Shown here: positions 7,501-43,099 of the stretch, piece by piece
How positions within the stretch are numbered: position 1 is the first letter of the stretch
How the letters are laid out: every line of letters begins with the position of its first letter
Assembly (NCBI GenBank): GCA_001642005.1
Contig: LWCA01000185.1
Span: forward strand, 1-43,099
Direction: 5' to 3'
Length of the DNA stretch: 43,099 bases
Source of the DNA: Intoshia linei
Taxonomy: Eukaryota > Animalia > Orthonectida
Program-made: the position numbers and the translations under genes
The notes under the pieces: generated by a model
Database searches by the model: none
Told to the model about the DNA's origin: nothing
What the model saw: the letters and a program-made list of their open reading frames with translations, nothing else

Positions 7501-10500
7501 TTAGCAAAATCTATCATTATGTGGCGCTAACAATACATCGCTCAACTGAATGTTCGCCCTGAAATATAATTATTCAGTATAACTTTTACTCAAAGTGATA
7601 TTTAAAATTTAGAATTCAGATTAATTTTTTACTTTCAAAAATGCCGATTTTATAGTAGCAATTCTCAATTTAAAATTACAATAAAATATTCGAATAATAA
7701 TTGAATAATATTCGAAAAAATATCAAAAAACCTTTGATAATTGTCTGTAAATACATTGTATTCGTAAGATGAATGAGTGAATGCTTGAAGTAAAAGTTTG
7801 ATATTTTTAAATTGGTAATTTAAAATGTTTTGCACAGGTTCAACTCTTTTGAGTAAATCATTGAAATTATCTGATGATCCATCAACTTGAAAATCAGATT
7901 TCCCCTTCTTCCTAGTAATTTCAAACGACTTATTCAAATAAGAGTTAAAATCAAATTTCCCGTTACTAATATCTTTTGCAACAGAAAAATTGATACCGAA
8001 ATATTCAAAAACGGAAATGGCTGCTCTAAAATCACAATTACAAACCCAACAACCAATAATAGCTTCAAACGAATCTGACAAATTTTTATCCGTTAAGCAT
8101 TGATGGTAATGAACATCAAAAGGAACAAATTCAGAAGAAACGTTTATATGCTTACATTCTTCATTAAATTCATCGTAATAATTATCAATTGAATAGATTT
8201 TACTTAAACTGTCAGTTAATTCTACTGAATCAACAGATTTACTGAAATTGTAATATTTGGAAGGGTAATAATCAACAGTATTTTCTTTGTTGACAACTTT
8301 ATTTAAAAAATTTTGACTCTGAGAATTTAATGACACAGAACTGATAGAAATGGCAGTATCAGAATCAATAAAATATCCTGGAGCCAACCAGCTAATTTCA
8401 ACGTCAAATTTAGTAGATTGAATAAAATTAGCTAGGCCTTTACTAACAGCTAGCTTGTATAAACTATAATTGCTCACGATTGCACTTCTAATGGAACTGA
8501 GACGTCCTTCTGAATAATGAAAAGGATGTTTGAAGTACGTATTGATAGATGAAGTCAACTTCAAAAACGAGTCTCCAAGCATCTCGTACCTTTCCATGTT
8601 TATCAAATCGGCAGCATTCGTGGTAGTCAGAGTCGCTAGAAAATCAACCAATTCAGGAAGACAGTTTACATTTGTTTGACACAAATATTTATCATATTTT
8701 ATGAACGTATCAATTTTATCAGTTTTGTAAGTTTTTGCATCAGAAATTAGTGTCTTTTTAAACATTTCAGTTGCACAATTTAAAGCTTCGTCAATTTTAT
8801 CAGTATTTCTAAAATTTATCGATAGATTACTAATACTAGAATCCGAATTGGTTTTCACATACTCTTTAAATTTGACATGTTGTAAATTTCCAAAGTTTAA
8901 ACCGAAAATGTTGACAAAATCGTTAAATTTCGGGTTTTCTTTCATAGTAACATTTATTTTGTCAATTTCCTTTTTTATACAAGTTTTGTAAGATACTGGA
9001 ATATTTTTATCAATTATATCTTGTGCTTCCTCCGTTTCATCACAGTCAAAATCATCAATAATTTTCATACTATTCTTATTGATTTTTCCGTCGTACGCTT
9101 CTTGAATTTCTTTGAACGGATTCATTAAATAAACAAAATAGTCACTGGATATATTAGAGTTTGATTTTTTTATGAAATCGGCAATGTCATTGTATAATTC
9201 AAAGGATAATAGCAAACTAACCAGTCGCATCATTATCGACGGTATTAATACTATTTGATGCCATAGAGTAGCGGGAATACAGTGTTTGTAGCACAGTTGA
9301 GGTATCATAATTTCATAGTTTTTTTTAGATGTTTGTGTGTTCAGGGGCATTCTATTTTTTATAAAATTCATCCGTCTTTCAACGTATTCGCAATATAATA
9401 AGTTTTGGTTGTTTTCTAAATTTTTAACATTGTACTTTGCTTCATAATAATCAGCAAATGTACCGAATTTTTCATTAGGAAAATTTGATAACGGAGTCAA
9501 ATTGCTTACTTTATTTACATATAAAAAGTGAACATTTTTGGTTCTATATATAGGCAAAATAATTGCATTTTCGTAGTTTTCATTTGGATTATATTTTGGT
9601 ATCGATGTTATATCCTTTTTATCAATACAAGTTTGTAATACTTCAACTATATCCCAATCCACTTTATCTATAAAATAAAAAGTATAAAAATTAATTAGTA
9701 TAAACCACTGATGGAAAAATGTGTTTTCGTGTTAAAAATACAAAGTACACAGTTAATTTATTTTTTAACACATTTAAAACACCTTAAAAGTTAAATTTAA
9801 AAAGAAAAACATCATAATAGAAACAGATTCCATGAGTAAGCAAGGCTCACTTGCGTAGCTAATATAGTGAAACCCCTCTAAAAAAAATTATCATGCTTTT
9901 AAAAATATATCAATCCTATATAATTTGTTTATTACATTTTCACATGTCAACAGTTTAAGTTGTATTGAATTTTTATGACACTTATCACGCTTTTTTGATA
10001 CTCCAAAAAACAAATTAGTCGTTAAATTTTCAAAATCGTTTGTTTATAAAGAGGTTTCACTGTACTACGAAATTCTAACTAATTAATTATAATCCTAGGA
10101 CGGTTGTAAATTTTAAAAAAAGACAGTTAATATTTTTGTGTTAAAGGACTAAATTTCTGACAATGAAATTTGCTATAAAACATCACCTTCGAAAAATTGT
10201 ATTAGAAATATTGAATTTTTAAATTTTAAAAATTGCATATTCTATTACAGTTTTTTCCGGGGGTAAAAGTAAGATTCATTTCAATCTCCAATTGAGTCCT
10301 TCAATGTCAAATCCCCAATTTACCTTTTTTTTAATTCAAACCCATCCTAGAATTATAAAAAATCCACAATCTGATCAAGATTTTAAAATCATTCACATTA
10401 TAATAATTTTCAATTTGAAAAGCTTGTATTTATGTATTTTCACGGCTAAAACCACAAATTATCATTTTTTGTAAAAAGGAAAAAAGTCCTAGAATTGTAT

Positions 10501-13500
10501 ACAACACAAATTCTGGGATAGTTTTTACAATCATAAGTATAATTATAAATAAATTTATTATTGTGTCACTGTTTATCCCCGTAGATCCCAAACTCAGAGC
10601 CGTTTTAATGCATGGGCAATATGGGCTGTAGCCCAGGGCCACTCATTAAAAAAGGCCCCCAAATTAATAAAAGTACTTGACATTTATATTTTAAAACGAG
10701 GCCCCAAATTATTAAAAAATATTTCACATTTATATCTTAAAAAACAGTTTATAAGTTTTAGAGTGTGGGAATTCAAATAGCTAGAAAGAAAATAGTTTAA
10801 AGAATCATAATTCTAATAATTATTCAATTTAAAATATATTCTACAATGTTCCTCATATAATATTGACATAAAAACTGTTTCAAATGATAATATTAAACAT
10901 TAAAACCTTTATATTAAGTTAATATTCAAAACAGAAAGTAGGTAAGTTGTAAGTAATAACAAAAGTTACTAGAAACTTACATAATATCTTTTAATGCTTT
11001 TATTAATACTCAATGAAATAAGACTTTAAGTCTGCAACCAACAGTATGCCATGTCTTTTAAAAAGGGGCCTAAATTTTTTTATCGCTTCGCTCAAAACTT
11101 TAAAGGGCCTCCGGCCCTTTGCTTAGCCCAAACTTGCGATAAAAATCTCCCCTTACAACCAAAAAATTCATCAACGCCCATTCTATATTATTATATACTA
11201 GTATAATATTATATATTTTAAAATCGCCCACTTTGGGAACCCCTGTTTTAAAGTGTAGTCCCAACAAGAGTCCAGTCTGGCTGTTTACATGAAAGTGCTT
11301 ACAACTTGATAAATAAAATTATGTTAACATTTATCTCATCTATTTGGTAAATTCTGGGACCCAATATGTGAAATATTGGATAAAATAAAAAATATAAAAA
11401 TTATATACTAACCTTGAAGCAGAGGAACAATTAAATATTTTATAAGACTCGTATTAAAAGAAAATTGCATTTTGGATTTGCGCTCGTACAACATTACGTT
11501 ATTTATTAAATATCTATGAGAATTTTGCAATTTTTTCATTTGCACACTATTCAACACAATTTCTTCAAGAAACATAATTTCTACATCAACCTTGCCAGAC
11601 CTGGTAAACAAAGGAATAATACAAATGCGTGGTATTTTCGAAGATGTGATAATAGCTACACCATCATTTAAATTTTGATACTTGATAATTCCTTCGACTT
11701 CTAAACGTGTAGATTGTTCAGCGTCACATTTCAAAGGATCAACTAATAATAATTTAAATTTGTATACATACAATATTTTATCAACTTCCACAGGTTTCAA
11801 CAACTGTTTAGGGTACTAAAATATAAAAATGTCACTATAAATAAATAAAATAATTGTACCTTTCTAGAATACATTTGTTTTCTTTTGACGGTACCAGGTT
11901 TTTCTGCGATAGTCTGCACATTTTTTTGAAAAAGTTTCAACGAGTCATTTTCAGAAAAGACGGGTAAAATATTTTTATCCAAATATTTATTGTTATACAA
12001 CCATTCCGCCAATTTAAAAGAAACATCCATTTTGGCAATTTTTTTATTAATCATGGCGTCTCCCAGATAGAATGATTCTAAACCCTTTATATTTGGGCAT
12101 AATATCTTGAAAGAATAATTTTTACTAGGTAAATTCTTTTTATCAGTAACAAAAATAATATCCTTTTCCTTACCGGTACTTTTGGACTCTTTAATGAAAT
12201 AACGAGCAAACAAATTCTTTCCAACAAATTCTTCTCCCTTATAACATTGGTAGAACCTATTTATCACAGAGATTGAATTCTGCATGCAAATGACTGCATT
12301 TTCTGTAGTCACAATAGGTTTGTTTATGCGAGACAAGTCCGCTCCAAACGCTAGGCTTTCATTTTTACTTTCCAAAGTCAATTCTCTAATAATTTTTTCA
12401 GTTTGAATATAGAGATTAATGCTTCCAATTTTTTTATCCAAATCTTTTTTATCAAAAGAAAAATATACAATTGAATCATCATCCCTAGCTCTACCTGTAG
12501 ATTGTATATAAGAGTTAAAACTCCGCACATCGCAAAAATTGTACACCATATTGCAGTTTCTGATATCTATACCTTCTTGAATAACTTCAGTACAAATCAA
12601 AATATTAATTTTATCTGACCGGAAATCGCAAATTTTTTGATTATTACTAGTCAATTGTTTGGAAACGGGATTATTAGTCCCCACTATGTAATTACACCGT
12701 ACAAAGGAAAGACTTAATTTGCATTTAGAGACAAACTTGATTAGCTTACACAAAGTTAGTGCCGTTTGCCGGCAAGTTACAAAAACCAGCATTCTGTTCA
12801 TTATAATTGGTTTGCTGTCATCTTCATCTAAACCTTCCTGAATCATCAAATTGGTTGATTCTTTGTCTTCTTCGATATGTTCACGTTTGTGCTTGTATAT
12901 AGTGCTAATTAAATTGACCACATTTTCTGATAAGTACGGTTTTATATAATTATACATGTATTTATCTTTAAATAGGTTGCTAAATTCCTGGTATATTTCA
13001 AACAATTCCGTAATAATGACTTTCATGGTTTGATTATAGAGTTTAAGCTTTTCGGTAGTTATAAAGGTGGTCTTGATTAGAGATAAATTTTTAATTAAAT
13101 ATTTTGAAATTACTGCCACTCCCAGCGGTCCCAAAACTTTGTAAATATTTTCAATCGACAATATAATTCTTTTTGGTAAATTGATAAAACTCGTCATTCC
13201 CAATGTTTCTACCAGAATATAGTCTTGATTAGATTCAATTTTTGTATACAAGGGCTGCATATATTTTACAAACATTTGTAAATCAGAAATTTTGTATCTC
13301 ACCATTCTACTTAATTTATCATCAAATTCAAGATTCGAATAAAAAATTATTCTTTTTTTTCTGTTAATATTTTTATTGGCAAAATAATTATATGAAGTAT
13401 CATTCAACGATGTAAATGTTTTGCAGTTTAAATTTTTTTCTAACAATGCAATTTTTTCTTTAATGAGTTCTTGGGAAACATGCGTATCATTTATCAGTGA

Positions 13501-14022
13501 AGCTGTTAAACCAACAATTCGCGGTTTGTTACAAGATTCATAATCTTTGATGTGTCGCATAATGTTCACTATACAATGATTCTTAATAGCCCGATGACAT
13601 TCATCAATTATTAACAAATTTATTCGGTCAAAAGTAATCATACCATGTTGAAATAATTCGAGTAATATTTGATATGTCATAACTAGAACTTCAAAATCTT
13701 GAAAAATAATATTCCATTGAGAAGGCGACCATACCTTTGAACCATAAGACCCTATCACCTCTTTAACACTTAAATTAGAAGATCGACGAATCACATTTGC
13801 TTGCTGATTTACTAGTGCAACTACAATATAATTATTTTTCAAAATTTAAATAGAACTTGAGTGGACAATGAAAAATGTTCGTTTCGCTACACCTTCCGAA
13901 TAAGAACCTTGTAACGACAAGGAAAATTCGTGGATTGCCATAATTGATATGTATGTTTTACCGGACCCAGGACTCAAAAATACTATTGAATTTTCATTTT
14001 TTATGTTTTGCAGCATATCCAC
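4597..14022 (-). CDS. DICER1: Dicer endoribonuclease (DExH helicase, DUF283/platform, PAZ, RNase IIIa, RNase IIIb, dsRBD); true start uncertain
   Basis: Exons 14022-13857, 13820-11860, 11815-11413, 9667-7732, 5427-5193, 5151-5031, 4990-4889, 4849-4774, 4735-4597. Motifs: PGSGKT, DECH, TAS, QSTGRAR; PAZ TPLSNFP...TFADYYEAKY; RIIIa ERYEMLGDSFLK...KNLSDSFEAIIG; RIIIb QRLEYLGDAVLD...KPLGDIFESLAG; dsRBD PKSPIRLLHE...GTGNNAQWAKHNAARKAI. First in-frame ATG at 14016; no upstream coding exon identified. Confidence 0.96.
5638..7174. mobile_element. Non-autonomous TIR DNA element in a Dicer intron
   Basis: TCGCAGTGTTAGAGTTATGTTCTATCTGCA at 5638 and its inverted copy TGCAGATAGAACATTATAACTCTAACACTGCGA ending at 7174; TA on both flanks. 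Confidence 0.8.
5779..6693 (+). mobile_element. pogo/Tigger transposon remnant nested in the element above
   Basis: TA-flanked degenerate TIRs (CAGTGGTTTCTGTTCAATATGAAT / ATTTATATTGTACAGAAAACTAAG). Coding relics MALEIASLLNLNDFKASTG and YRNDNIFNCDET match the CENP-B HTH and the first catalytic D region. Confidence 0.8.
7177..7296. mobile_element. About 120-bp MITE
   Basis: TGTTACCGTC ... GACGGTAACA inverted termini with TA flanks. Confidence 0.6.
9865..10062. mobile_element. pogo/Tc1-type MITE in a Dicer intron
   Basis: TA|TAGTGAAACCCCT ... AGAGGTTTCACTG|TA imperfect TIRs. Confidence 0.6.
10595..11130. repeat. hAT-like non-autonomous element (copy 1, left end present)
   Basis: Begins CAGAGCCGTTTTAA. 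Region 10820-11130 closely matches 29787-30052, whose end TTAAGACGGCTCTG is the complementary TIR. Confidence 0.7.
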
Positions 14023-19126: not shown

Positions 19127-20479
19127 TGGAGCCTAAACAATTGCAAAGTGGTATAGAATCTAATGAAATGGTATGTTTAATATTTGAATTTTTTTTATAT
19201 TTTTGATCAGATATTAAAACTGAATCAACGTTGTTTTTCAAGTTATAAAACTAATAAATACATCGGGATTTCGAATTTTCTATCATATGTGGGCGCGCAT
19301 ATTATTTATTTAATCTGCTGTTGCCAAACCTTTTTCGTTATGGATCCCCAATTTCAGAATATAAATCCAAATAATCATAAATATAATATTTTACGTGACT
19401 CATCCTCCAATAATTTCAAAATTTTCCATGTTTATGTGAAACAAAATTAGAAATTTTCATAAAACTATATTATAAATAGATTCTAAGAAAAATACACAAA
19501 TCTCTTGCAACTTTGAACGCTCAATTTTGTTTCAATAATAACAGTGGAAATGTAATTTTTTCAGTCCCGTATCTAAAAACGATACCTCCATTTAAAAACC
19601 ACATTTATCACGCAATCTCATCAAACAATGGCATGCGAAAAACAGTCGAGAACATTTACATCCTAGCCGAAAAATTTACATACCCTAAGTTTATAGATCA
19701 ATTAGATTTTACCATTGGTCTAGCAATGCAGCAATTACGGAATTCTAACAGTAGCGGTAACGCCAAATTAAAATATAACAATTTCAGTAATATATTCGAA
19801 ATTGAATTTATAAAAAAGAACAAGGTGACTGGTGGAATGAACATGGTTATTATTAATTTTAAAAATTATATTAAAAATTTAGATACTACTAATTTTGTTA
19901 TACGGGTGCGGGTTAAGCCATGAAATCTTGATGGATAAATATACTCATTGTCAAACTGTTCGAATTGCCAATTTTACTACATATTTATTGGAATCCTTAA
20001 ATTGTAAAAAACTATTTTATTCATTAATCACAAATATGGGCGACCAAGCAGTTTCCGATTTTGTTGAGGTTTCAAAAATGGAGGTACGTTAATTAAATCA
20101 TTTTAAACATTAAACGTTATATATTAGGGTGAAATTGAACCAGAGCCTTTTGATTTAGAAATACTTGGAGCATTAGAAACAAGCGATGAATTTACTGGTA
20201 AATTGGACTGGCTTCAGCTGCTTGCATTTTGATGCTTTTTCTTTTGATATTCTATAAGCTATTTTAGAATCGAAAGATTCTTGTATAGTTTATCTCTCAT
20301 CTATACTAAAATTTGAATATCCTTACGGAAATGCAGTCAATAATGAAAACGATAATTCTATTTGCCGACCAGTTAATGGATCTCAAACTAAACTACACAA
20401 AATATTTTTTGTGTTTTCCATCGGCCTTTTGGGCGGATTTTTATTTTCCAAATTCCTTAATTACAAAAAAGGAATTTAA
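19127..20479 (+). CDS. Divergent Bcl-2-family tail-anchored protein, BCL2L13/Bcl-rambo-like (5' end uncertain)
   Basis: Exons 19127-19170, 19211-19429, 19480-19845, 19883-20083, 20128-20197, 20268-20479 splice in frame. FSSYKTNKYIGISNFLSYVG resembles Bcl-rambo FHYETKYVVLSYLG. YNNFSNIF...GGMNMILLILLYGCGLSHE...VRIANFTTYL resembles Bcl-2 helices 4-6. C-terminal TM IFFVFSIGLLGGFLFSKFL is followed by NYKKGI*. Confidence 0.68.
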
Positions 20480-20500
20480 CGTTTTTATTGTGTACATTAT

Positions 20501-20845
20501 TTATTTTTTCAAAAAAAAAATCTTTTTGTCCACATTTGTTTTTTTATCATTAGAAATTATCCTATCTATTTTGTTGTTTAATTTTATCATTGTCATTTCC
20601 TGGTTATGTGGTGATTTTGGTGTGCTACACGGCGCATTCGGATAGATAATGGAATGGATCTTTGATACATTTATATCTTGTTTGCATTTGTCTCTCTTTT
20701 TGCATAATACTGCTCGATTTGGAATTCCATATTTCCGATATTTCAACTTTTCTATAATATTTCTAGATCCATATAAGCCTTCTATCGGAAACTCGGGTCG
20801 TAGTTGGATATTAATTATTTTGTATTTTTTCAATATTTGTTTCAT
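20501..20845 (-). CDS. Hypothetical basic 114-aa protein, single exon
   Basis: ATG-initiated 345-nt ORF filling almost the whole gap between two genes in very AT-rich DNA; no motif recognised. Confidence 0.5.
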   Translation of the reverse strand: MKQILKKYKIINIQLRPEFPIEGLYGSRNIIEKLKYRKYGIPNRAVLCKKRDKCKQDINVSKIHSIIYPNAPCSTPKSPHNQEMTMIKLNNKIDRIISNDKKTNVDKKIFFLKK

Positions 20846-20932
20846 TAGATTAATTGGAACAATTTGTTAAATTGTCAAAATAATAATCAGTTTCGCTTTT
20901 AATTGTTTATTGAGTACAGAATTTAGTTTAAG

Positions 20933-21599
20933 TTATTCCTGCAAATAATCACACAAGTTTTTGAAAGCTTTGTATCTGTGGGACATGTTGTTTTTTTCAT
21001 TCTCGTTCATTTCAGCGTATGTTTTCTCGCAAAAGTCGGGTTTAAAGATTGGATCCCATCCAAACGTTATTTTGCCTCGAGGTTCCACTATTTTACCATT
21101 TGTAGTTCCAACAAATAGCATAATCTTTCCTTTATTTTGTCTATTGTCCATGAAACCTAGTGTACATTTCACTTCGGCCGATTTGTCTTCAAACCCGTTT
21201 AATAATTTCGGTAGGTCTAAACATGTTTGAATAGATTATAATATATTTTTATAGTTTACCGTCAACGCCCAATTTTTTCAAAAAATCTCGAATGTACACT
21301 CCAGGTAGGCCGCCCAAAGCTTTAAAACCAAGACATGAATCTTCAATCAGTATGCTCGGTGTATCGTCACCATAATCAGTTTTTATTTCCTTGTAGGCCC
21401 TTTTTAATTTGTCTATGGCCACTTCGTCGGATGTACCTTGTATTTCGACCAAATCAATCTTAATTCTGTCAAAGAATATCTAATAATGTCAGTAAATTAG
21501 CAAATTAATTATTACATTCTTATTTGTAACAAGAGACTTTACAATATCTTCTGCCTCTTGATATTTGTTTTCGTTTGAAGTAACGAACAGTATTTTCAT
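20933..21599 (-). CDS. ITPA: Inosine triphosphate pyrophosphatase (HAM1 family)
   Basis: Three exons: MKILFVTSNENK...; IDLVEIQG...IEDSCLGFKALGGLPGVYIR; ...PRGKITFGWDPIFKP...TYAEM...KNNMSHRYKA. Confidence 0.96.
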
Positions 21600-23035: not shown

Positions 23036-26000
23036 TTATAAATAAAGACTAGCCGCAAAAACAATATCCTTTTTAATGAGTTCAATAGCTTTAGTAAATT
23101 TAGTTTCAAGGTCTGTTTGTTCAATCGTTTTAGCTGCTAGAGAAAGTTCACGCAAACACTCTTCGAGTCTTCGCATGGTTTTGATAATTGTACCTTCATA
23201 AATATCAGATTTTTCAAGTATACTCTTAAAAGATGCTCCATTACACCAATCATACACAATATTAATCATGTGAGGGTTAATAGATTTCAGGTATTTATTT
23301 TCATCAAAATCACGGATTTGGCATTCTTTGTTAGTCTCTGAAACTAATTTAGCTGTTTCAAATATTTTTATGTAATGAGACTGAAGAGATGCATGTAGCC
23401 TTAAAGGCATATTAGATTTTTCCTGAAAAACAAAGCATGAAGCCAATGCAGCAATTTGAGTAGGTTCCAAATCGTTAAAAAATTTATCAAATATTAACTC
23501 TGTCAACAAAATTGGATCAGCAGAAGCAATGTTACAACCTACTTTTCCTTTAGGTTCAATGATGCCATCATTATTGATAAACTGCATACGTTTCAGTAAA
23601 CTCTTTCGACACTTTAATTGGTCAATCAAGAGAATTTTTTTTTTGCTCTTAATATCTTCCTTTATTACTTTCAACTCATCCAACATTTTCAAAGAATCCA
23701 AAAATGCATTATATTCTTTTTCACACGCTTTATTCTTGTGAATTTGACTCCTTGTTAGTCGTTCTTCAAATTTCACAACATTTTCAACATAAGTCTTTAA
23801 TTTAGAGTGAGTAATACCCATATCTGATACTGGATCCAATAGTGGCAATCCATCAGGAAACTTTTGTATTATGCTTTGTAAATCTTGATATATTTTTTTT
23901 CTGTCCTGGCTTTGTGTTAAATTGTTCAAAAAGTACATTCTTATAGAGCTGAGTCTTGCAATTGTTTCAAGGGCGATGGACAACACAATAATATTGACTG
24001 AAGAAATAGATTTAGGAGGACATAATTGTTTCACATGCATATTTGGGGTGCAAGAAGAATCTATATTGACCAAACAATCTACAACATACTCATCTGTATT
24101 TTTAGTCTCATTCCCATTATTATGGAAACCTATCACAACACCCCAACCAAAATCGGTTTTATTATTTATAATTCTAATTATTCTACCTTTCTGCAAAAAA
24201 GGTATTATGTGTTCCGGTTTGTTTATTATATCTCGGATTTTTTTTTCATAAAAATCTATATTCTTTCTAATTTTATAATATTGTTTGTATTCACTCAAAT
24301 TTGTGAAACTGAGTGCATCATATTTTATTTTCAATTTTTGAAATTTATCGACCAATAGAGGAATGGATTTGTAGTTTTGAAATTGATAAAACGTACGTTG
24401 TAATAAAAAGTTTACATTCGAAGAAGACACACGAATCATATTTAAAATCATTGTATAAGAAAGGTAAAATGAGCTGTTGAGAGGGTCGGCCTTTCCTGTT
24501 AGCATCCTAAATCCTTCCTCCTTGTCCATCTTTTTATTAAGCATTACAATTACGATTCCTTTTTTGTCAATTGATCTACGACCAGCTCTACCAGACATTT
24601 GAATAAATTCTCCACTGTGCAATGTTCTTGAAAAAACTCCATCAAATTTTTGAGTATCTGAAAATAAAACGGTTCGAGCCGGCATATTAACACCCATTGC
24701 AAACGTTTCTGTGGCAAAAAGAGCTTTAACTAATCCTTCCGAAAAAAGTATTTCCACAGTTTCTTTTAAAATAGGCAATAAACCCGAATGGTGAATTCCA
24801 ATTCCACGCTTCAAAAGTGATAACAGATTAGTCACTTGAACTAAATTTTTATCTTCATCCGATAATGTGTCGATAGCATTATTGAATATTTCTACAACAG
24901 TATCTCGATCGTCAGAATCGTTAAAATTAAATTCACTGATTTGTAACGCATAATCTTCGCACAGTTTTCGAGAAAATGTAAAAACGATTACGGGAGCCAT
25001 GTCTCTTCCCATGATCATCTTAAACAGCCTTTTAAAGTCGCTTTGAACATTTCTTTTTGCGGTTGAACTTTCTAATTTTCGAAACACAGCATCGTAAGTG
25101 TCTCTTATAAACTCGTCGTCCTCTTTAACAACTAAATGGATTCCTGTATCTCCACTAACATAAACGTATTTTTGCAAAGGAATTGGTCTATAATCTGTAT
25201 AAACTAAATTACATGGGTGTTCGTGAATGTTGCATATCCAATCTGCAAATTCATCGCCATTTGAAATTGTGGCCGATAAGAAAACGAACCTAACCTGCTT
25301 TGGTAGAAGTGCAATCGATTCTTCCCATACAATACCGCGTTCTGGGTCTCTCATGTAATGAATTTCATCAAAAATTAACCATTTTACTTGTTTCACAATT
25401 TCAGCTCCTCTATAAATCATGCTTTTTAAAATTTCTGTTGTCATAACCAAACAATTTGCGTTAGAATTAATTGTTACATCTCCCGTCATTAAGCCAACAT
25501 CTTCAAACTCGTCATACAATTCCCTGTACTTTTGATTACTGAGAGCTTTGATAGGAGAGGTGTAAATGACTCTTTGTTTGTTCTGTAAGCAAACTGCAAT
25601 AGCATAAAGTGCTACAGCAGTTTTACCGGAAGATGTGTGTGAAGCAACCAAAACGGACTGATCGTTTGCAACACAATTTATGGCAGACCTTTGAAAAGGA
25701 TCCAATGTAAACGAGAATTCTTTTGCTCTCTTGAAATTGACGTTTAACGGTTTAAATATTTTCTTCGCAGGATAGTATACCTATAATAAAAATATAACAT
25801 TATACAATTCAAAATTACCTCATGAGTACAACCCGGATCGGTTTTTATTACGTGCCTTATATTACATTTTGAGTCATCACAAATATACCTAATATAAACA
25901 TTAATTATACGATTATTTATTTGTCAAAATTACTCTTCACAAATGTCATCCGAAATTTGATTACATTTCATTTCAATCAATTCCTTAATGTTTTCCAGGT

Positions 26001-29206: not shown

Positions 29207-29700
29207 TCAATTCTCTTTATATCCTTCTTTCATACGTCTGCTATATGCAAAAGGCAATGGCTGTGACGTATTTCTTGAATCAATTAAAATTACTTTAAAC
29301 TTGCCCCTGAACCGTCGATGATAGAGATGTTTCTTTTGATAATGTATATCCATCAAATCAATTAAATTTAAGATTTTTGAACAAGAGACAAGACCCTCAA
29401 CTTCAACATACAAATGAAAATACATGGAATGTCTCGTCCTATAAAATGAGCTATTCACATCAGCCCGTAAAATATTCCACTTTCTAAATAGCAGAACCGC
29501 ATTTTCGGACATTTGTTTAGAAAGTCCTAAAACTGCCACAAACTTGTTCACTTCTTTCTGGCTGATTTCTACAAACAAATCACCTGGATTGTATGAAAGA
29601 TCATTTGAGTCATCTCTAATCACAGAGGCAGAATTTGAAAATTGGCTGATGATTATGGCTCGTATAGGAGCTTTACAGCATCAAACAATAATTTGGGTAC
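29207..29700 (-). mobile_element. DNA transposase remnant, probably Chapaev3/CMC-like
   Basis: ISQKEVNKFVAVLGLSKQMSE...KWNIL...FYRTRH...LVSCSKILNL...FKVILI...PLPFAYSRRMKEGY follows the remembered pattern SQ.ELNDL.RDL.LSK...L..WNLL...YR.R...LKAVLL...P.A.S..MKE.Y. The superfamily assignment is from memory. Confidence 0.6.
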
Positions 29701-33725: not shown

Positions 33726-34359
33726 ATACAATTATGTTTTATAATTTATATAACGTTGGTACAGCCGACAAGGCTCAGAACTATTATTACTATGGCGAAT
33801 AAGAGATTTCATCACTGTTCAGAAAAAAATTTAACGAAAAAAACAACACTACGTGAATTTTTTTTCCAAAAGTTAATATAGTTCAATAAATTTGATTGTA
33901 AGTTAAATTTTTTGTTTTTATAAGTTAAAAAAAGTCGCCCTAATTATAACCTACCGTATCGAGACCTTCTTCGTGGGCCTCGACGAAATTTTTGTAAAAT
34001 TGAGAGTTTTAATGTATATTGATAATTAATAAATTATTACATTTTATTTTTTCGAAGGTGGTTTTAGTTATTTAGGAACGATAAGTAAGGTTAAAGGGTA
34101 AATAAGGGAGCGTTTAAAGGGAAGCAAGTATATTAATAGTTGTAGATATAATTAATTGTAAACTAGGGATTTAAGTATAAGCTTTTGTCAATGTAAGTGA
34201 ACAGAACCGTGAGTAAGACGAAAAGAGAAACCCACGTCGAATTTGATGTTACGATTATCCAATTCAAACTAACCATTATTTTTTAAATAAAATATAATAA
34301 AAAAAATTAACCAATGAGTGTAATATAAATTTAATAAAAATTAGGAAAAAGGTATAAAT

Positions 34360-36162
34360 GAAGTCTTGACAGGATCGGCCATTCCTGTTAACATTCTAAA
34401 TCCCTCCTCTTTCCATATTTTTGTTAAGCATTACAATTAAAATTCCTTTTTTTCAATTGATTTACGACCAGCTCTACCACACATTGGAATAAATTCTTCA
34501 CCGTGCAATGTACTTGAAAAAATTCCAACATATTTTTGAGTATCTGAATATAAAACGGTTCTAGCCAACATATTAACATCCGTTGCAAATGTTTCTGTGG
34601 CAAAAAGAGCTTTAACTAATCCATCCAAAAAAAGCATTTCTACAGTTTTCTTTAAAAAAGGTAATAAACCTGAATGGTGAATTCCAATTCCACGTTTCAA
34701 AAGCGACAACATATTAGTAATTCGTGGTAAACTTTTATCTTCATGTGATAAAGTGTCAATAGCATTATAAAAAATTTCTACGATAGTATATTCATCGATT
34801 GAATCGTTAAAATTTATTTCATTCATTTGTAAAGCATAGTCTTCACATAATTTCTGTGAAAATGTAAAAACAATTACTGGAGCCATGTCTCTACCCATAA
34901 TCATTTTAAATAACTTTAAAGCTACGTTGACCATTTCTTTCTGTGGCAGAGCCTTCCAATTTTCAAAAAACAGCATCGTAAGTGTCTCTTATAAATTCAT
35001 CATCCTCTTTAAAAACCAAATGGATTCCGGTATCACCACTAACGTAAACATATTTTTGCAATGGAATTGGCTTGTAGTCTCTATAAACAAAATTACATGG
35101 ATGTTCGTGAATATTGCCTATCCAATGTGCAAATTGATTACCATTTGAAAACGTTGCAGACAAAAAAATCATCCTAACGTGCTTTGGTAAAAGTGAAATC
35201 AATTCTTCCAATTCAATATCGTGAATTGAATTTCATTAAAAATTAACCATTTTAATTGTTTCACAATTTTGGCTCGTTTACAAAGTATGTTTTTTAAAAT
35301 GTCTCTAGTCATAACCAAGCATTTTGCAATAAAATTAATTGTCAATTCATCAGTCATTAAACCAACATCTTTAAATTTGGCACAGAATTTGCTGTTTTTG
35401 ATTAATGAGTGACTTGATAGATGATGTGTAAATGGCTTTTTGATTATTCTTGAAACAAATGGCAATAACATAAAGTGGCACAACAATTTTATCAGATGAC
35501 GTGTGTGATGCAACCATATCAGACTGATCGTTTGCAACGCAATTTATGGTAGATCTTTGAAAATCATTTAATTTAAATGAAAATTCCTGTGAGCCCTTGA
35601 AATTAGACAATTTGAATATTTCTTTGGGACGGTAATATACCTAAAATAAAAAAATAAATGATTATTAATTAGGTTATAATTATAATACAATTCAAAATTA
35701 CAGCATGACTACAACCTAGATCGGTTTCTGCTACGTGCTTTACATTACATTCGGATTCGTCATACATATGGCTAATATAACATTTATTACATATTTTATG
35801 GTTAAAATTACTCTTTAAAAATATCATTAGAAATTGGATGTTTTATTTCAATTAAATTATTAATGTTTTTCACATTTGTTGACTTTCGGTTTTTTTGGGT
35901 TAAGTGATAAATGCTGTCACTATGGACACAATAAAGATAGTGGGGGAACTTACACTGCTTCTTTGGACAAAACCCATTTCTTACAAAATTAATACAGATC
36001 TGGTGTTTTATTAACTTTTCTCGAATCTCACGTGTGATTTCTAGTATAGGTTTGGGCATACCCCTGCTATAGGTTTCAGATTTATTACTGTCAAACCTTG
36101 ATTTTTGATCTTTTAGCCAAAGGAAGGTCCGCTGAAATTACAGATTTACTAGGTTTATCCAT
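34360..36162 (-). pseudogene. Decayed MTR4 duplicate with an N-terminal CCCH zinc finger
   Basis: Colinear with the MTR4 gene including two intron positions. Several frameshifts; Walker A SGKT changed to SDKI and DEIH to NEIQ; ends after motif VI. The 5' exon encodes CINFVRNGFCPKKQCKFPH. Confidence 0.88.
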
Positions 36163-37298
36163 AGTCTAGAAAATAAATAAATTATTATGAAGCGAAGGAA
36201 ATATTTAGTTCATATTTTATGTCAGGAACTTAAATAGCTGAAGATACTATACTATGATTACTTAATAAAGACATATATTGAAGCAACGTTATTCTCATAA
36301 TAATTTAGATGATGAAACTTTTCTTATTTATTATATACAAATTTTAACGGTCAATTCGATACCGTGCGTGAAGAATTATGAAACTTAGGATGAAATAGAT
36401 TTGTAGACGCGTTAATTCGTTATGTGGCTGATTGGACGTATGTATTTACCTCATGTCTCATTAATTTACGTTATCTAAAATTATATAATGGTCGGTTTCT
36501 TCTAATAGTTATCTTATATGTCTCATTAATTTACTTTTATCTAAATTTCTGTTTCTTTCGTTAAACGATAAATCTCATAATTACCAATTCTTCTTTTCTA
36601 AAAGTTTTAATGCCTATAACTCACGATAATTCTAAAATTATATTCTTATATTGTATTTTTTAAAGAGATTGTTAACATAAATAATATATACATTTGCGTA
36701 CGCCAATTTTTATTCTCATCTATATTTTAAATTAATATTAATTGTTAATTGTTTTTGAAACTGTGTATATCTATACAATACAGACATACAACAATGATAA
36801 TGTATTAAAATATATTAGTGGAATAGATTCCATAGATTTTATAATTTATACACTTGTATGTATTATATTTTCATTCTAAAACAATTTTTAGTAAAAAATA
36901 TACCTCGATCACGTTGTAAACTCTTAAATTCTTATTGATATGTTAAATTATACTCCTTAAATTAAAGTACAGTCCGACCCCGCTTTGGGGCAAACCTCGT
37001 TTTTGATTGCGAATTAGTTTTTATATTTTAAAAATACACACTTTTAGTGCTAATTACCCTTGATTCTTTGATGGGTGTGACACCCTAATGTATAATTTAT
37101 TCATTTTTTAGTAAATAATAAAAATTCGATATTCAACATAAGGCACAAATCTTTTTAAAAAGTACACTATATGAAATTAATTTGTATTAATAGGATAGTA
37201 GATAATCGTCTTATGAACCATTGAATTCACTCTGAAACGAAAATATATTAAAAATAACATTTATTTACAAATATACAATTAATATTCATTTCATTCAA

Positions 37299-37468
37299 TT
37301 AACAATGTATTCTTAAATAATTATTGAAAGTAATCTTGAATATTCAAAGGCATTTCTTCAATATTTGTTGAATAAAATTGTTCAATATCATGAAGAATTG
37401 GTAAATCATCTGGTTTCACAAAGTTGATGGCAATACCCTTGTCACCATATCGACCAGAACGTCCAATT
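37299..37468 (-). CDS. Terminal exon of an eIF4A/eIF4A3-type DEAD-box helicase (upstream exons not in the window, or lost)
   Basis: After a TTTAG acceptor: (R)[47 protein letters not shown]...*, i.e. motif VI plus the typical eIF4A C-terminus. Confidence 0.85.
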
Positions 37469-38015
37469 CTAAATTAGTGATAATAATAAATTAACACCTC
37501 ATTAAGTACGATTATAATCATCTTTCTTTGATTTGAGTGTTTTAGTCATAGCAGTGATTCTCAATCTTGTTTCTAATGGGCGCACTTAAAAGCAATTAAA
37601 ACTGTTGGATGATTCTGATAATTTAGGGGCCACCTTAAAAATTTACTACTGCTTGTATTTAGTAATTTGGAGTTAAATCAACAAGACTTGCCAAATTAAA
37701 TTTACATTTCATATAATTTTAAATATCTTATAAGTCGGATGCTCTTAAGATAAAGTGGCCAGATATACGTATTTTTTTAAGTTAAAAATGAAAAATAGGG
37801 TTATATGACATTATAATTCGTTTACAAAATGTTTTAATAGGCTATTTTTCATTTTATAAGTGGCGACGGGCTTGTTAAATTCAATTGCGAAAACTACAAT
37901 CCAACTAAATTAAATCGTTACATAGATTAAATTTAACTCACGTGAAAATTATTCACGTTATTCAGTAAATTTTCACTTCATTTTGATTAAATATAATATA
38001 ATAATAAATAAATAT

Positions 38016-39147
38016 ACTAACAACGTCAGTCACTGCGATAAGTGTATACATCTCCTATATACGAACGACGCCACACATGTTGAACGAGTCACTGAAAAAA
38101 GTGATACAACATTGTGTTACTTATTCGTCGATAATAAAAAATTATCAGCATTACAAGATGATCTGTTAAATAATAAAATGGGTTTTAAGTTAATAAATCA
38201 AAGGTTACCAACTGATAGTTAGGAACAAATAACAACCGGTATAAAAATAAAAATATGTGACGAATGGATACCAGCAGAAACAGTGATCGATTCAGTCATG
38301 CACGAATTGCGTGAATGGATGGATATGCAGACTCTCGATATGGAAGGTATTTGTGCGTATACTTATCCTGATCAAAAAATCAGTGATACAAAAAAGATCT
38401 TGGAAGTAGATTGTGCCGTATTACAAAGCGCTTATAGTGCAGTAGTTCAGAACCCTACGTTCATCGACTTCTCTTGTAACAATGGAGTGAATGTCAGTAG
38501 GAAGATAACCGTGAATACAGATTGCATAAAGTTAAATCCAACAAGCTTCGTAAATAAAAAATTACCAAACGAATATCTAATTTCTCCAAAAATAGCCACG
38601 TGTGCGTACCCAGACCGCACCGACACTGTAAAAAATCTGTTTGACGCTCTAAATAAAATAGTATGTGAAGTCGTATGTCTGATAGCTCCTATAGCTTTAT
38701 CAACATCGATCGTTCACTTTTCAACCAGGTTCATCAAAACCTATATAGTACCAAATGCATTAGAACTTATAAAAAATTTTCATGCTAAAGGTATAACCGT
38801 AACGAATGACGACGTGAAGATTTGGTCAAGTAAGTTAGATAATAATTAAAAGAAAAAAATAACTGAAATGGACTTTAATGACAATTTATGACTTGACCGT
38901 CATATGTTATATAAGTGCGTAAGATAGAGTGTTAAAAAGATGGTAATTACTTTAACGAAATTCCAAAAGGACAAGTTATTAGTGCTTCCAAATAGTTATT
39001 AACCGTCTGAAAACTTTACTTAAACACAATGTAGGATTGACTATAAGTTACAGTACAGAAAAACTGTCAAATTTTGTACATTACAACAGTAATATTACTG
39101 AAAAATTTATCGAAGTCGACATGTCAGATTTCGACAAATCACAAGTG
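38016..39147 (+). pseudogene. Endogenous viral element 1: virga-like (Martellivirales) replicase fragment ending at RdRp motif A
   Basis: KIATCAYPDRTDTVKNLFDALNK...RFIKTYIVPN...W, then through stops and frameshifts EIPKGQVISASK and FIEVDMSDFDKSQ (alsuviricete motif A, E.D.S.FDKSQ). Intronless. Left boundary approximate. Confidence 0.82.
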
Positions 39148-39319
39148 TGCAGAATGTGCACTATCCATCTAAATTCATGATTAAAATAATTTTGTTGTTC
39201 GTAATAGTGTAACAATTCCATTCTTCCTGTGAATTCATATTTTAGTTAATTTTAAATGCCCTGAATTTTCATGTATAAAAAAATTTTACGAGTTGAACAT
39301 CAAAATAAAAATTGAAATG

Positions 39320-39537
39320 CAAGAAGTTGAACAAAAAAAAAATGATATTTATGCTGTCGTGTATTGGTTATGCAGTCGGCCTTGGAAATGTATGGAGGTT
39401 TCCATACCTGTGTTACAAGCATGCAGGAGCATGCATGTTATTTTTAATTGGAATACCCATTTTTTTATTTGAATTGTGCATAGGACAATTTACTAGCAGA
39501 GGCCCAGTATATTGTTATAAACATGTGCCTCTTTTTG
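39320..39537 (+). pseudogene. SLC6 sodium:neurotransmitter symporter N-terminal fragment
   Basis: FMLSCIGYAVGLGNVWRFPYLCYK...GIPIFLFELCIGQF is the SLC6 signature. The FLIPY segment is deleted and similarity stops after VPLF. Confidence 0.9.
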
Positions 39538-39845
39538 TATTTACTGCTCTCTTTATTGCTTTACCAGATTTACCAGAAGCTAGAATACCTTTAGAGGTGC
39601 AGTTTAAGGGAGAGTACGCGGAGCATGCCACTCTAGCGTACAACCAATTGTCGGCTGGCATAATTAATTTAGACGTGCGAAGTTTCCGAGAATTCATGAT
39701 GCCCATGATATCGACTCGAGGACAAATGCAACAGCTTTCAAAGTCTCAAGTCACTATTTAGCTATAAACAAAAAAGTAATTTTTGTTTTAAAATTTGATT
39801 AAGCAAAAAAAGTATTTCTTTGCTTTTAAATTGTTATTTGTTACA

Positions 39846-40891
39846 ATGGCTAATATAAAAATTATAGATACTGGTGATTATAGTTATCAAAATAAATCCA
39901 CAATTGACAAACTCACTGGCATAAGTTTGGACGTTGCTGGATATGGAACTGATTGTTGTGCTAAATTGATGAAACAAATAATGTTAGTTGCAAAAAAATT
40001 AAAAATAAAATGTTGTACTGAATGTTTAGATGTTTTGTGTCAAGGAATATTGTTGCAAGATAGTTTGTATACAGTTACAGAAAAATACAGCGATTGCACC
40101 ATTTGGATGGTAAGATTATGGGGGCTACTTTAAGTTTTGCTTTTAAAATGTTAACATGTTAGTTGAATGGTAATAATAATTGTTGTTTGAAACATACTAT
40201 TTTAAATAGTTTTTTGACGACTCATGCTGTATATAATATGTTTGGTTGTCCAAAGACTTGTATAGCTAATGCCCAAATGAATACTATAGTAATGGATGGT
40301 ATATTAGATATCTTCCAATCTTTTTCCCCTTTTTCAAAAGCTGATGGATATAGATTAAAGCGGGCTGCTGATTTTTCAAGGAGTTTCACTTCAATGTTTA
40401 CTCTTATGGAGAAAGTTTCACTGTTTATGGCGCGATTTATTGATTATACGATGAATGCGTTTACTGAGTTGAATTCAGTAGTTCCTAATAATGTTGCGGA
40501 TTGGGTAAATAACGTCTCTAAAGTTGAAGTTATTTATTGTGAATCTGATGTTTTCCTGTCCAATAAAGAAGCTATGTCTAAGTTCGTTACACATAGAAAA
40601 AATATATATGATCTTTATAAACAAGGAAAGATTTACTTAGCGAAGTTTGAGCTATTGCCACAACAGTCGTTTATTGCTAAACTTGTTTTGGCTAAAGTTA
40701 AAGCCTTAGAGAAAATTATTAACCAGTGTTTATCTCTATATATAGGGAATGATCGTAAGGATAAACCTTTGTTAATTTATTTGTATGGAAAAGCAGGTAT
40801 AGGAAAAACAGTTTGTATAAATCATGTTTTTACAGATGTTTTTGCTGCCCTAAACCGTAAACTTATAATGCTAGTAGTGATAAATACTGCT
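39846..40891 (+). pseudogene. Endogenous viral element 2: picorna-like polyprotein fragment up to the SF3 (2C) helicase Walker A
   Basis: RKDKPLLIYLYGKAGIGKT matches R..P..I.L.G..G.GK[ST]. It is preceded by a 2B/2C-like helical region (DWVNNV...LYKQGKIY) and an AQ/M cleavage-like site. Intronless, interrupted near 40133; the assignment of 39846-40160 is weaker. Confidence 0.75.
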
Positions 40892-40959
40892 ACTATTTAG
40901 CCAAAAATCGACTTGAGTATGATTTAGTGGAATTAATCGCTTAAGGGACATGCATATTT

Positions 40960-42010
40960 GATGGTATAATCTACACTATCTGCGATGATAGACCAGATTC
41001 ATATATAAAAGAGATATCTTGCAGTGGGCTTAATTAATGCTAAGACCATTGCGGATGTTGGACATCATCTATTATGGTTATGACTCTGGCTAATAATAGA
41101 AATAGTAATATCTACAACCAAAAGTACAGTAAGCGGTGTACAAAAGCTTTGTCCAACATACGTAAGCGGAAATCTATTTAGCTAAGTGCTTCCTATTAAA
41201 ATATTTGCCAAATCTGAAGTTCAGGGTTGAATGGCTTCAGTTAAAAAAGATGACATTAACAAGGGGCATGGAGAATGATGTCTGTATGACAGACATTATT
41301 GATCCAAAGTTTGGTAGTATTATTTTTGACAAGTTATGGACAATGGCGAACCCAAATAGATTGACCACAGTAAAAGTATTAATAGCTGCCGTAGATCAAA
41401 AAAACTTCGGTGTCCCAAGATTAATGGCAAATTGGTCATTAGCTGTAACTGTGAACAAAGTAGTTGAGAAGTTCATAGACTTCTATTGTGTTCCTAATTG
41501 GAAAAACTACATTCCATCATTATTAGACGATAACTTAAAAATCACATGCGGTGAACTAACAACGTGGTTACGCAAGTGCTATGAAGCGAAAATAGGACGA
41601 TTAGATAGAGCAATCTATGAATCATTGTTTAAAGCTGAATACAATCCGTCACTATAGGGAATAATAAAACCAGTAATGACTAACGCATACATTACTAAAC
41701 TACCCAAAGAGCAAGTCATTAATGCGTCGAAACCTCTTGTAAATAGTATATATTCACCGCTGTTTAAACAGATATTAAATATATTAAGATGTTAAAGCTA
41801 AATATAGCTGTAAAAATTGATTATTCAAACAAAAAAATATCAAATTTTATGAACGTATATCACCCATCAACAGCACAATATGTAGAAGCAGATATGTTTT
41901 CCTTCGACAAAAGTCAGAATGCACTGAGTATATGTGATTTTCTTTATCTATGTCACATTTATGGGATGTCGAAAAACGACATAGACGTGTGGCATCACTT
42001 ACATATAATA
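40960..42010 (+). pseudogene. Endogenous viral element 3: second, distinct virga-like RdRp fragment
   Basis: KLWTMANPNRLTTVKVLIAAVDQKNFGVPRL...KFIDFYCVPN...*GIIKPVM...LPKEQVINASKPLVNSIYSPLFKQI...YVEADMFSFDKSQ...YGM...W..LH. Stop at 41657 and a frameshift near 41789. Confidence 0.85.
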
Positions 42011-42489
42011 TATATAAGTAACTCTTCACATTCAGTGTCTTTCAAAAATAGCTGTCAAACTCATATTTAATATTCATAAGCATCAAAATAAAGATGCAGA
42101 TTGCAAATAATTGCGTCAATATGAAAACAATATAATTAATTTAGTAAAATATAATAGCTATTATAACATCAGAAACGGTATTCACTTTGATAGCATCATA
42201 AAATGTGTAATTAACCACAATTTCTCAAAGGGGAACGTGTAATAATATTAATAATATCTTTAACTTTATTATTTAACAATATTATATTATGGACGTTCCA
42301 CGAGAAATGCAAGACAAGATTTTCCAGTGTAAATCTAATGCAATCTACATGAAGTGACACAGTAGATTTAAGGTATACATCCATGAACACTCGTTGGAGA
42401 AGAACTTCAATAGTGTATTAGTATTTTAGTAAAAGTATGAAACGGGTGTTTCTACTGCTTTGAGCAATGTCGTTTCAAGTTCCGATGTG

Positions 42490-42830
42490 AGTTCAAGGTT
42501 CAAATATTCACTGCATTGCTGCGATGTCTGCAACTTATATATTATTAAGTAGAATATTTAACTTCAAGACTCACCGAGGCTCATTTAAAGGTAATAATTG
42601 CAATGACTGGTTAAGAAGTTTGATTGATCAATGTACCAAAATGGGCGTAATCTCACCTACGTTTGTCATAGACAATGCTCCTGTTCACAGGAAACTTGAA
42701 TCTGTCATAAGAATTGGTGAAGATGCTGAAATTATACGCTTAGTTCCTTATTCATATTTGCTAAATCCAATCGAGCTTTCATGGAGTTGTTTCAAAAACG
42801 AAATAAAAATTAAGCTTAGGTACTTATTAC
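42490..42830 (+). mobile_element. IS630/Tc1 DDE transposase fragment
   Basis: GSNIHCIAAMS...GSFKG...FVIDNAPVH...LVPYSYLLNPIELSWSCFK. Confidence 0.88.
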
Positions 42831-43099
42831 TTATTGAAATACTTATTATATTAGAGATGAAATGCGATGAAATGTGAACAATTATACCATAAAAAATGTA
42901 ATAGATGGATCAAAAATTTCTGTAAATAGTGATAGATTAAAAAAATTAACTTAGATTTCATTTTTATTCTTTAAAGTTTGTACAGCATTACTGCACCAAA
43001 TTAAAATAGTTAATATTACCAAATATGCGATGATGTTTACACCATAAATGTTTTTCCACACACTTATAGCTAATTACACAGCTGCTTAGTATACGCATA

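Follow-up and report, generated by a model that had tools for sequence, protein, structure and literature searches.

The germ-line DNA of Intoshia linei, an orthonectid and highly reduced animal, contains an array in which fragments from three RNA viruses and from a host transporter gene are joined end to end on one strand. The array occupies 38016-42245 (~4.2 kb) of contig LWCA01000185.1 (assembly GCA_001642005.1), whose 43,099 nucleotides we call the window, and has a Tc1 transposon remnant to its right. A first-pass annotation had noticed co-oriented viral, host and transposon fragments here and had proposed a uni-strand trap locus archiving past infections through small RNAs. With slightly better than even confidence, we instead explain the block as a germ-line fossil: one composite cDNA, or a small number of them, produced when a retrotransposon reverse transcriptase switched templates, and decaying without a coding role.

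Composition of the array

Translation of 37800-43099 and Pfam scans placed all identified pieces on the + strand. The array and its borders are made up as follows.

37780-37990, no strand: high-copy AT-rich repeat resembling a miniature inverted-repeat transposable element (MITE), bounding the array on the left and containing a 28-nt inverted repeat
38016-39170, + strand: replicase fragment 1, from an alpha-like RNA virus (Martellivirales-type motif A), ending just past motif A
39171-39540, + strand: 5′ end of an Intoshia SLC6 transporter gene, with an SNF match and an AT-rich putative leader
39541-39761, + strand: GC-richer piece of 73 open codons in the frame of the SLC6 piece, then a stop; absent from the first-pass annotation
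39762-40893, + strand: 5′ end of a calici/solinvi-like virus (picorna supergroup), with AT-rich leader, ATG at 39846, N-terminal region and helicase Walker A
40894-41299, + strand: piece between the calici-like piece and fragment 2; match tests no better than shuffles
41300-42245, + strand: replicase fragment 2, from a second alpha-like RNA virus, with RdRP_2 in two frames
42262-42880, + strand: Tc1/IS630-type transposase remnant (DDE_3) of a multi-copy family

The five co-oriented pieces named earlier, namely two virga-like polymerases, an SLC6 fragment, a picorna-like helicase and a Tc1/IS630 transposase, are all present on the + strand where they had been placed, as seen in Pfam scans and, for the helicase piece, in a HMMER search. 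These profile searches bear out their nature, the viral fragments matching viral replicases or polyproteins and the SLC6 piece being a host gene. The picture of five abutting pieces is amended in that two more lie inside the array (39541-39761 and 40894-41299) and that the Tc1 remnant is not bridged to it.

Fragment 1 matches Pfam RdRP_2 at 38983-39170 (E 4.3e-7) and is broken by stops at 38220, 38847 and 38889 as well as by frameshifts. Its segment 38577-38888 aligns to fragment 2 (26 % identity, E 1.7e-7), while 38016-38576, which has no match of its own, probably belongs to it by continuity of frame. Fragment 2 matches RdRP_2 at 41334-41780 (E 1.6e-13, with the stop read as X) and at 41783-42058 (E 7.2e-6), and is disrupted by a stop at 41655 and a frameshift near 41790; no motif B-C region was recognised past its motif A, and 42060-42245 has no Pfam match. 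Because the two fragments cover the same region with 26-44 % protein identity and no extended DNA match, they derive from two different viruses. Searches including a scan with P0123 returned no named relative of either, so the label 'virga-like' holds at the level of RdRP_2 and not for any finer placement.

For the calici-like piece Pfam alone was weak (E 0.029). In a HMMER search of 1.84 billion protein representatives, 40163-40897 gave 19 matches at E <=0.001: the window's own protein, one other I. linei protein and 17 proteins of 834-3185 aa, the best match reaching E 3e-36 at 36 % identity. The matched proteins that were scanned carry RNA_helicase in 11 of 12 cases and RdRP_1 too in 10 of the 12, as helicase-protease-RdRp polyproteins do. 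Named relatives are Cryptolin calicivirus 1, Beihai sesarmid crab virus 2 and Beihai barnacle virus 4, with which the piece shares a homologous N-terminal and Walker A region at 28-32 % identity. P0136, annotated as a Citrus unshiu protein, also appeared among the picorna-supergroup matches and is probably an endogenous viral element (EVE) of a plant. A word-index search among proteins up to 2000 aa returned nothing, and Atlas PIF1/AAA clusters were rejected as relatives since their matches reflect the Walker A motif.

From the ATG at 39846 the N-terminal profile match is weak (E 0.027); a CxxC stands at residue 57, against 54 in P0124, and is seen in 4 of the 7 proteins compared. The piece is interrupted by frameshifts near 40085 and 40860 and by a stop at 40160, and homology ends at 40893, directly past Walker A. 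What had been called a picorna-like helicase is thus a stretch of viral polyprotein, mainly the region ahead of the helicase.

In a tree of 18 rows, from which P0122 and P0136 were excluded, the calici-like piece is sister to the I. linei protein P0130 (support 95/88), within a group that also holds two other contigs and Cryptolin calicivirus 1 (97/96). P0130 is a second calici/solinvi-like insertion, on another I. linei contig (21,875 nt), and its first 54 residues weakly match DDE_1 (E 0.004). Capture of this virus group therefore happened more than once. The window piece represents a distinct, undescribed virus.

The next piece, 40894-41299, probably belongs to replicase fragment 2, as its upstream part. 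It does not continue the helicase: against five helicase cores it scored 27-32, with shuffled maxima of 30-37, and a Walker B and motif C picked out by eye beyond 40893 were rejected as no better than shuffles. Against the upstream part of fragment 1 its score of 31, compared with a shuffled mean of 28, was not significant.

The host piece has an SNF/SLC6 domain match at 39333-39536 (E 8.2e-22). Compared with the I. linei protein P0007, 59 of 75 residues are identical across a 7-residue gap that reflects a 21-nt deletion. The I. linei transporter, at 81 %, has the highest identity among the 120 matches listed, and a Lineus protein reaches 58 %. A decayed start region at 39305 agrees with 6 of the first ten residues of P0007, the sole such place among 86,134 in the window. 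From there the piece runs to about codon 94 with two short deletions and, relative to the P0007 protein over codons 22-94, without any intron-sized insertion. The adjoining 39541-39761 has a GC content of 42.5 %, against 31-34 % in the other pieces; it found no match in Pfam, Atlas, PDB, viral and metagenome contigs or a fold search, and its structure model is poor (predicted local distance difference test, pLDDT, 52).

Assembly support and decay

Six listed runs from two studies, P1 (2016) and P2 (2024), were compared, five of them with some matching words. Run X1 shows no spliced joints and was treated as DNA, whereas X2, X3 and X5 show GT-AG joints and were taken to contain transcripts. The contig records were filtered, and gaps in cover (most of 37093-37326 in X1, 42350-42577 in X2) carry no weight.

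A single X1 contig (study P1) covers 37963-42181 and a single X2 contig (study P2) covers 37963-42204, each running through every internal junction of the array. Relative to the window, both contigs carry the identical 21 substitutions and a 3-nt insertion. A non-retroviral endogenous viral element is recognised by homology to an RNA virus that lacks a DNA stage, by junction to host DNA and by inheritance with decay. Here the viral pieces match RdRP_2 and calici/solinvi-like polyproteins, share one contig with the Intoshia SLC6 piece in unspliced X1 and another in X2, and recur in both studies with the same 21 differences and with stops and frameshifts.

That the array is an artefact of chimeric assembly, or contaminating sequence from a virus or from the nemertean host, is therefore very improbable and, for the inside of the block, largely refuted. 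Both block ends do meet repeats that none of the contigs listed crosses, and the window does differ from the contigs of both runs at the sites just given; yet those differences are identical in two studies eight years apart, whose single contigs span the internal junctions. X1 behaves as DNA, the stops and frameshifts are unlike live viruses, and the SLC6 piece is nearer to I. linei than to Lineus.

Outside the block the support is of another kind. The repeats at 36995-37092, 37780-37990 and 42181-42264 are crossed by none of the contigs listed, and none bridges 36995-37446, between the array and a Dicer gene. Array contigs stop at 42181/42204 and restart at 42264, and no contig listed joins the Tc1 remnant, so its link to the array, like that of Dicer, rests on the assembly. 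The MITE-like repeat has its arms at 37785-37812 and 37828-37855 with a fold z of only -1.7, and the bin 37850-38099 has a summed DNA depth of 423. The DDE_3 match of the Tc1 remnant lies at 42554-42808 (E 3.8e-9); other copies of this family are ~94-96 % identical in X1-X4, with a loose end at 42262 in X3.

X1 reaches a depth of 22.4 over the block, 19.4 over 42264-42626 and 4.5-13.9 over the 12 left-side pieces listed. Depth does not equal copy number and serves as a hint only; two near-identical copies or haplotypes of the block are likely. Four X1 pieces of the left flank show 1 difference in ~1470 nt.

The haplotype differences affect 18 codons, 5 synonymously and 13 non-synonymously, with two sites outside the assigned frames; random transitions would be expected to be synonymous in 34 % of cases. 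There is no sign of protein-level constraint, and the pattern matches neutral decay. Each viral piece has ~2-4 stops or frameshifts per kb, compatible with similar age, and between the stops at 38220, 38847, 38889, 40160 and 41655 and the frameshifts no intact viral frame remains. Tandem GG/AA differences occur at 38180-38181, 38321-38322 and 40122-40123; at least three adjacent pairs among 21 random sites would arise with P ~0.0002.

Origin of the block

Three RNA-virus pieces within 4.2 kb, against no viral Pfam match among the ORFs scanned in 1-38000, are not chance. Because the virus groups concerned have no DNA stage, a cellular reverse transcriptase would have made DNA from the viral and host RNAs. 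The enzyme of a long terminal repeat (LTR) element is the likelier agent, since LTR elements make up 1.31 % of the I. linei genome and long interspersed nuclear elements (LINEs) 0.02 %, next to 8.0 % DNA transposons (PMC7943196 supplement 1); end-to-end jumping of the LINE type was downgraded on the same ground. If the enzyme switched from RNA to RNA, in a single event or a few, the pieces would be left in a common polarity, and their shared orientation would therefore need no selection. The Tc1 element would have been inserted later and separately.

Two features fit template switching and the copying of RNA: no recognisable retrotransposon sequence separates the abutting pieces, and the SLC6 and calici-like pieces both begin at the 5′ end of their template, with leader and start region. 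Their similar degree of decay fits it too. Copy-choice recombination by LTR reverse transcriptase is a published route to virus-derived elements, as cited in 10.1101/127498. The chimeric cDNAs described there likewise hold RNA-virus sequence as DNA, in the same polarity as the other template; here, unlike in those chimeras, viral sequence is joined to that of other viruses and of a cellular gene, with no recognisable retrotransposon among the partners.

Several observations weigh against composite cDNAs. Copy-choice normally leaves an LTR-element fragment, and none was recognised in or beside the block. For a single event, three viruses would have to meet two other RNAs in the same germ-line cell. 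The pieces have clearly lost internal sequence (21 nt in SLC6), and deletion could likewise have erased spacers between separate insertions; neither a poly(A) tail nor a target-site duplication can be told from the AT-rich flanks. Frames scanned over 36100-43000 held no retrotransposon domain, a scan that would miss non-coding LTR ends. Capture inside one DNA transposon was rejected, as no terminal inverted repeats enclose the block; no tandem array of note and no Rfam match was found.

The common orientation is weak evidence by itself: five of five identified pieces on one strand has a two-sided P of 0.0625 if they are independent, or 0.03 with the GC-richer piece. It could also follow from several independent insertions at a tolerant site, such as a long intron or repeat-rich gap, if harmful orientations were selected away and deletions closed the gaps, with no small-RNA role. 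The + strand of the block bears 14 AATAAA and 7 ATTAAA, against 6 and 3 on the minus strand, so the observed orientation would be milder for a minus-strand pre-mRNA. The flanks are repeat-dense, with an Mtr4 pseudogene and the Tc1 remnant, and deletions are common within pieces. Such a history nevertheless requires five or six insertions in 4 kb, all spacers lost and none nested, among pieces that are similarly decayed, when no viral Pfam match turned up in the ORFs scanned across the other 38 kb. We regard it as improbable.

Possible intronic placement and the small-RNA reading

The nearest gene on the left is defined by one exon.

37321-37468, − strand: last coding exon of an eIF4A-family gene (acceptor AG 37470-37469, stop 37323-37321, AATAAA 37265-37260)

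This exon, part of an expressed gene, lies 500 nt left of the array and matches eIF4A-III in the PDB (E 1.8e-18). Contigs of X2, X3 and X4 match 37327-37456/37470 (0 differences in X2 and X4) and exit the window at 37470; their loose letters, read by eye, look like the preceding eIF4A exon, whose motif is absent from the window. Two DNA paths leave the exon at 37477 (depths 10.5 and 9.6), and two versions of it, with 0 and 4 differences, are abundant in X2, representing two alleles or paralogues. Since this last exon reads on the minus strand and the window lacks the exon before it, the array may be placed antisense within a long intron: the last eIF4A intron would exceed 5.6 kb, with the upstream exon beyond 43099, if the exon is the working one and the assembly across the 37780-37990 repeat is right. 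We hold this possible at somewhat less than an even chance. The unspliced 37441-37788 next to the exon is enriched in X2, which speaks for it; the second DNA path, the unenriched array and a longest seen intron of 1132 nt speak against it. Short introns of 33-53 nt occur in the window, in line with the median of 57 nt given in PMC6543705. If the intronic placement is true, it would favour survival of the block, and no small-RNA function is required.

Transcription was gauged from depth. The X2/X1 ratio is 12 on the Mtr4 coding region, 3.9 on 37441-37788 and 0.76 on the array; of four control segments, three give 1.2-2.0 and one gives 0. X3 depth on the array is 3.5-5.4, against a background of 2.6-4.4. 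Transcription of the array above background is thus not seen in the X2 and X3 depths, from contigs that carry no strand information. The X2 contig as a 4.2-kb transcript was dropped after the depth comparison with DNA.

The trap locus proposed earlier would correspond to a miniature uni-strand source of Piwi-interacting RNAs (piRNAs). In this reading the block would be transcribed from the minus strand, likely within the last eIF4A intron, and retained because its small RNAs are antisense to SLC6, Tc1 and the three viruses. Part of the groundwork stands, namely RNA-virus origin, germ-line DNA, a single strand and a highly reduced host. A trap that makes small RNAs is so far not supported: depth is not above background, no LTR fragments flank the pieces as in Aedes, and one or a few reverse-transcription events account more simply for the seamless joints. 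Every identified piece, Tc1 included, is antisense to the eIF4A exon, whose upstream exon lies outside the window, and 37441-37788 is enriched (3.9 against 1.2-2.0). The species has three PAZ-PIWI proteins, as many as Capitella, next to one Dicer and no eukaryotic RdRP (PMC7943196 supplement 15, where their clade, Ago or Piwi, is not given). Precedents are mosquito clusters that rely on host-gene transcription and contain EVEs in antisense (10.1101/2022.08.22.504762) and a whelk EVE that yields antisense 5′U small RNAs, whereas earthworms yielded no virus-derived small RNAs (PMC6085071). Set against this are the absence of enrichment over the array in X2 and its background-like X3 depth, the orientation P of only 0.06 (0.03 with the GC-richer piece), the lack of a single contig over the 37780-37990 repeat and the second DNA path at 37477. 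At 4.2 kb and without an LTR scaffold, the array is also unlike the Aedes loci of >50 kb reported in 10.1101/127498. We judge a piRNA source rather unlikely.

Aedes piRNA clusters, as described in 10.1101/127498, share with the array several RNA-virus families at one locus, one orientation (here five of five identified pieces on the + strand, P 0.0625) and transposon remnants nearby. A further likeness may be reliance on the transcription of a host gene (10.1101/2022.08.22.504762), although host transcription here, if any, would be intronic, whereas in Aedes it is read-through past the gene end. The Intoshia array differs in spanning 4.2 kb rather than tens of kb, in its abutting pieces and in including the 5′ end of a host gene; the same-strand LTR fragments with which Aedes EVEs are interspersed were not found in the frames scanned over 36100-43000.

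The first-pass annotation also pointed to Dicer ~24 kb away. The gene is there, with full architecture at 4701-14022 on the minus strand (helicase, dimer, platform, PAZ, two RNase III and dsRBD domains), at a distance that depends on the unbridged 36995-37446. Because piRNAs are Dicer-independent, its position carries no weight for a piRNA reading.

Elsewhere in the window, a decayed partial copy of the Mtr4 helicase gene lies at 34348-35872 (−), 79 % identical to 24460-25997, and a 41-nt GT-AG joint at 35632-35672 (+) in X2 and X3 marks a spliced transcript antisense to it. An X2 contig of 2122 nt over 19479-21260 unites + exons of the 16749-20458 gene with an ITPA-like gene (−); the 3′ ends of the two genes likely overlap. 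The ORF at 29210-29680 (−; 157 codons, GC 0.35) has no Pfam match. Ten exact look-ups with ORFs from the window gave no match.

A single sentence in PMC6396948 had already recorded RdRP genes of viral families in the I. linei proteome and read them as horizontal transfer. It concerns the same species and RNA-virus polymerase sequence in its genome, and deals with predicted proteins, with no locus, array or multi-virus join; it may or may not refer to the present pieces. Our literature search found no description of the array, of Intoshia EVEs or of orthonectid viruses; the main text of 10.1101/2023.11.03.565523 mentions Orthonectida once, and its supplements may list viruses.

Even as a neutral fossil, the array records three undescribed RNA viruses in the germ line of a phylum for which we found no described virus. 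It suggests that a reverse transcriptase is able to link RNAs of several viruses to a cellular RNA within a single insert without leaving a retrotransposon in it. If small RNAs arise there, EVE-based antiviral memory, well shown in mosquitoes, would reach a drastically simplified spiralian parasite. The boldest form of that idea, to which we give little credence, is a minimal antiviral memory cassette in a 42-Mb genome: a scaffold-less three-virus chimera lying in the final intron of a highly expressed gene for a translation factor, in antisense to that gene; once spliced out, this intron would feed the Piwi pathway. If this were true, Orthonectida would gain its first locus of this kind, an intronic counterpart of the read-through clusters of mosquitoes, together with the first record of viruses that infect the phylum.

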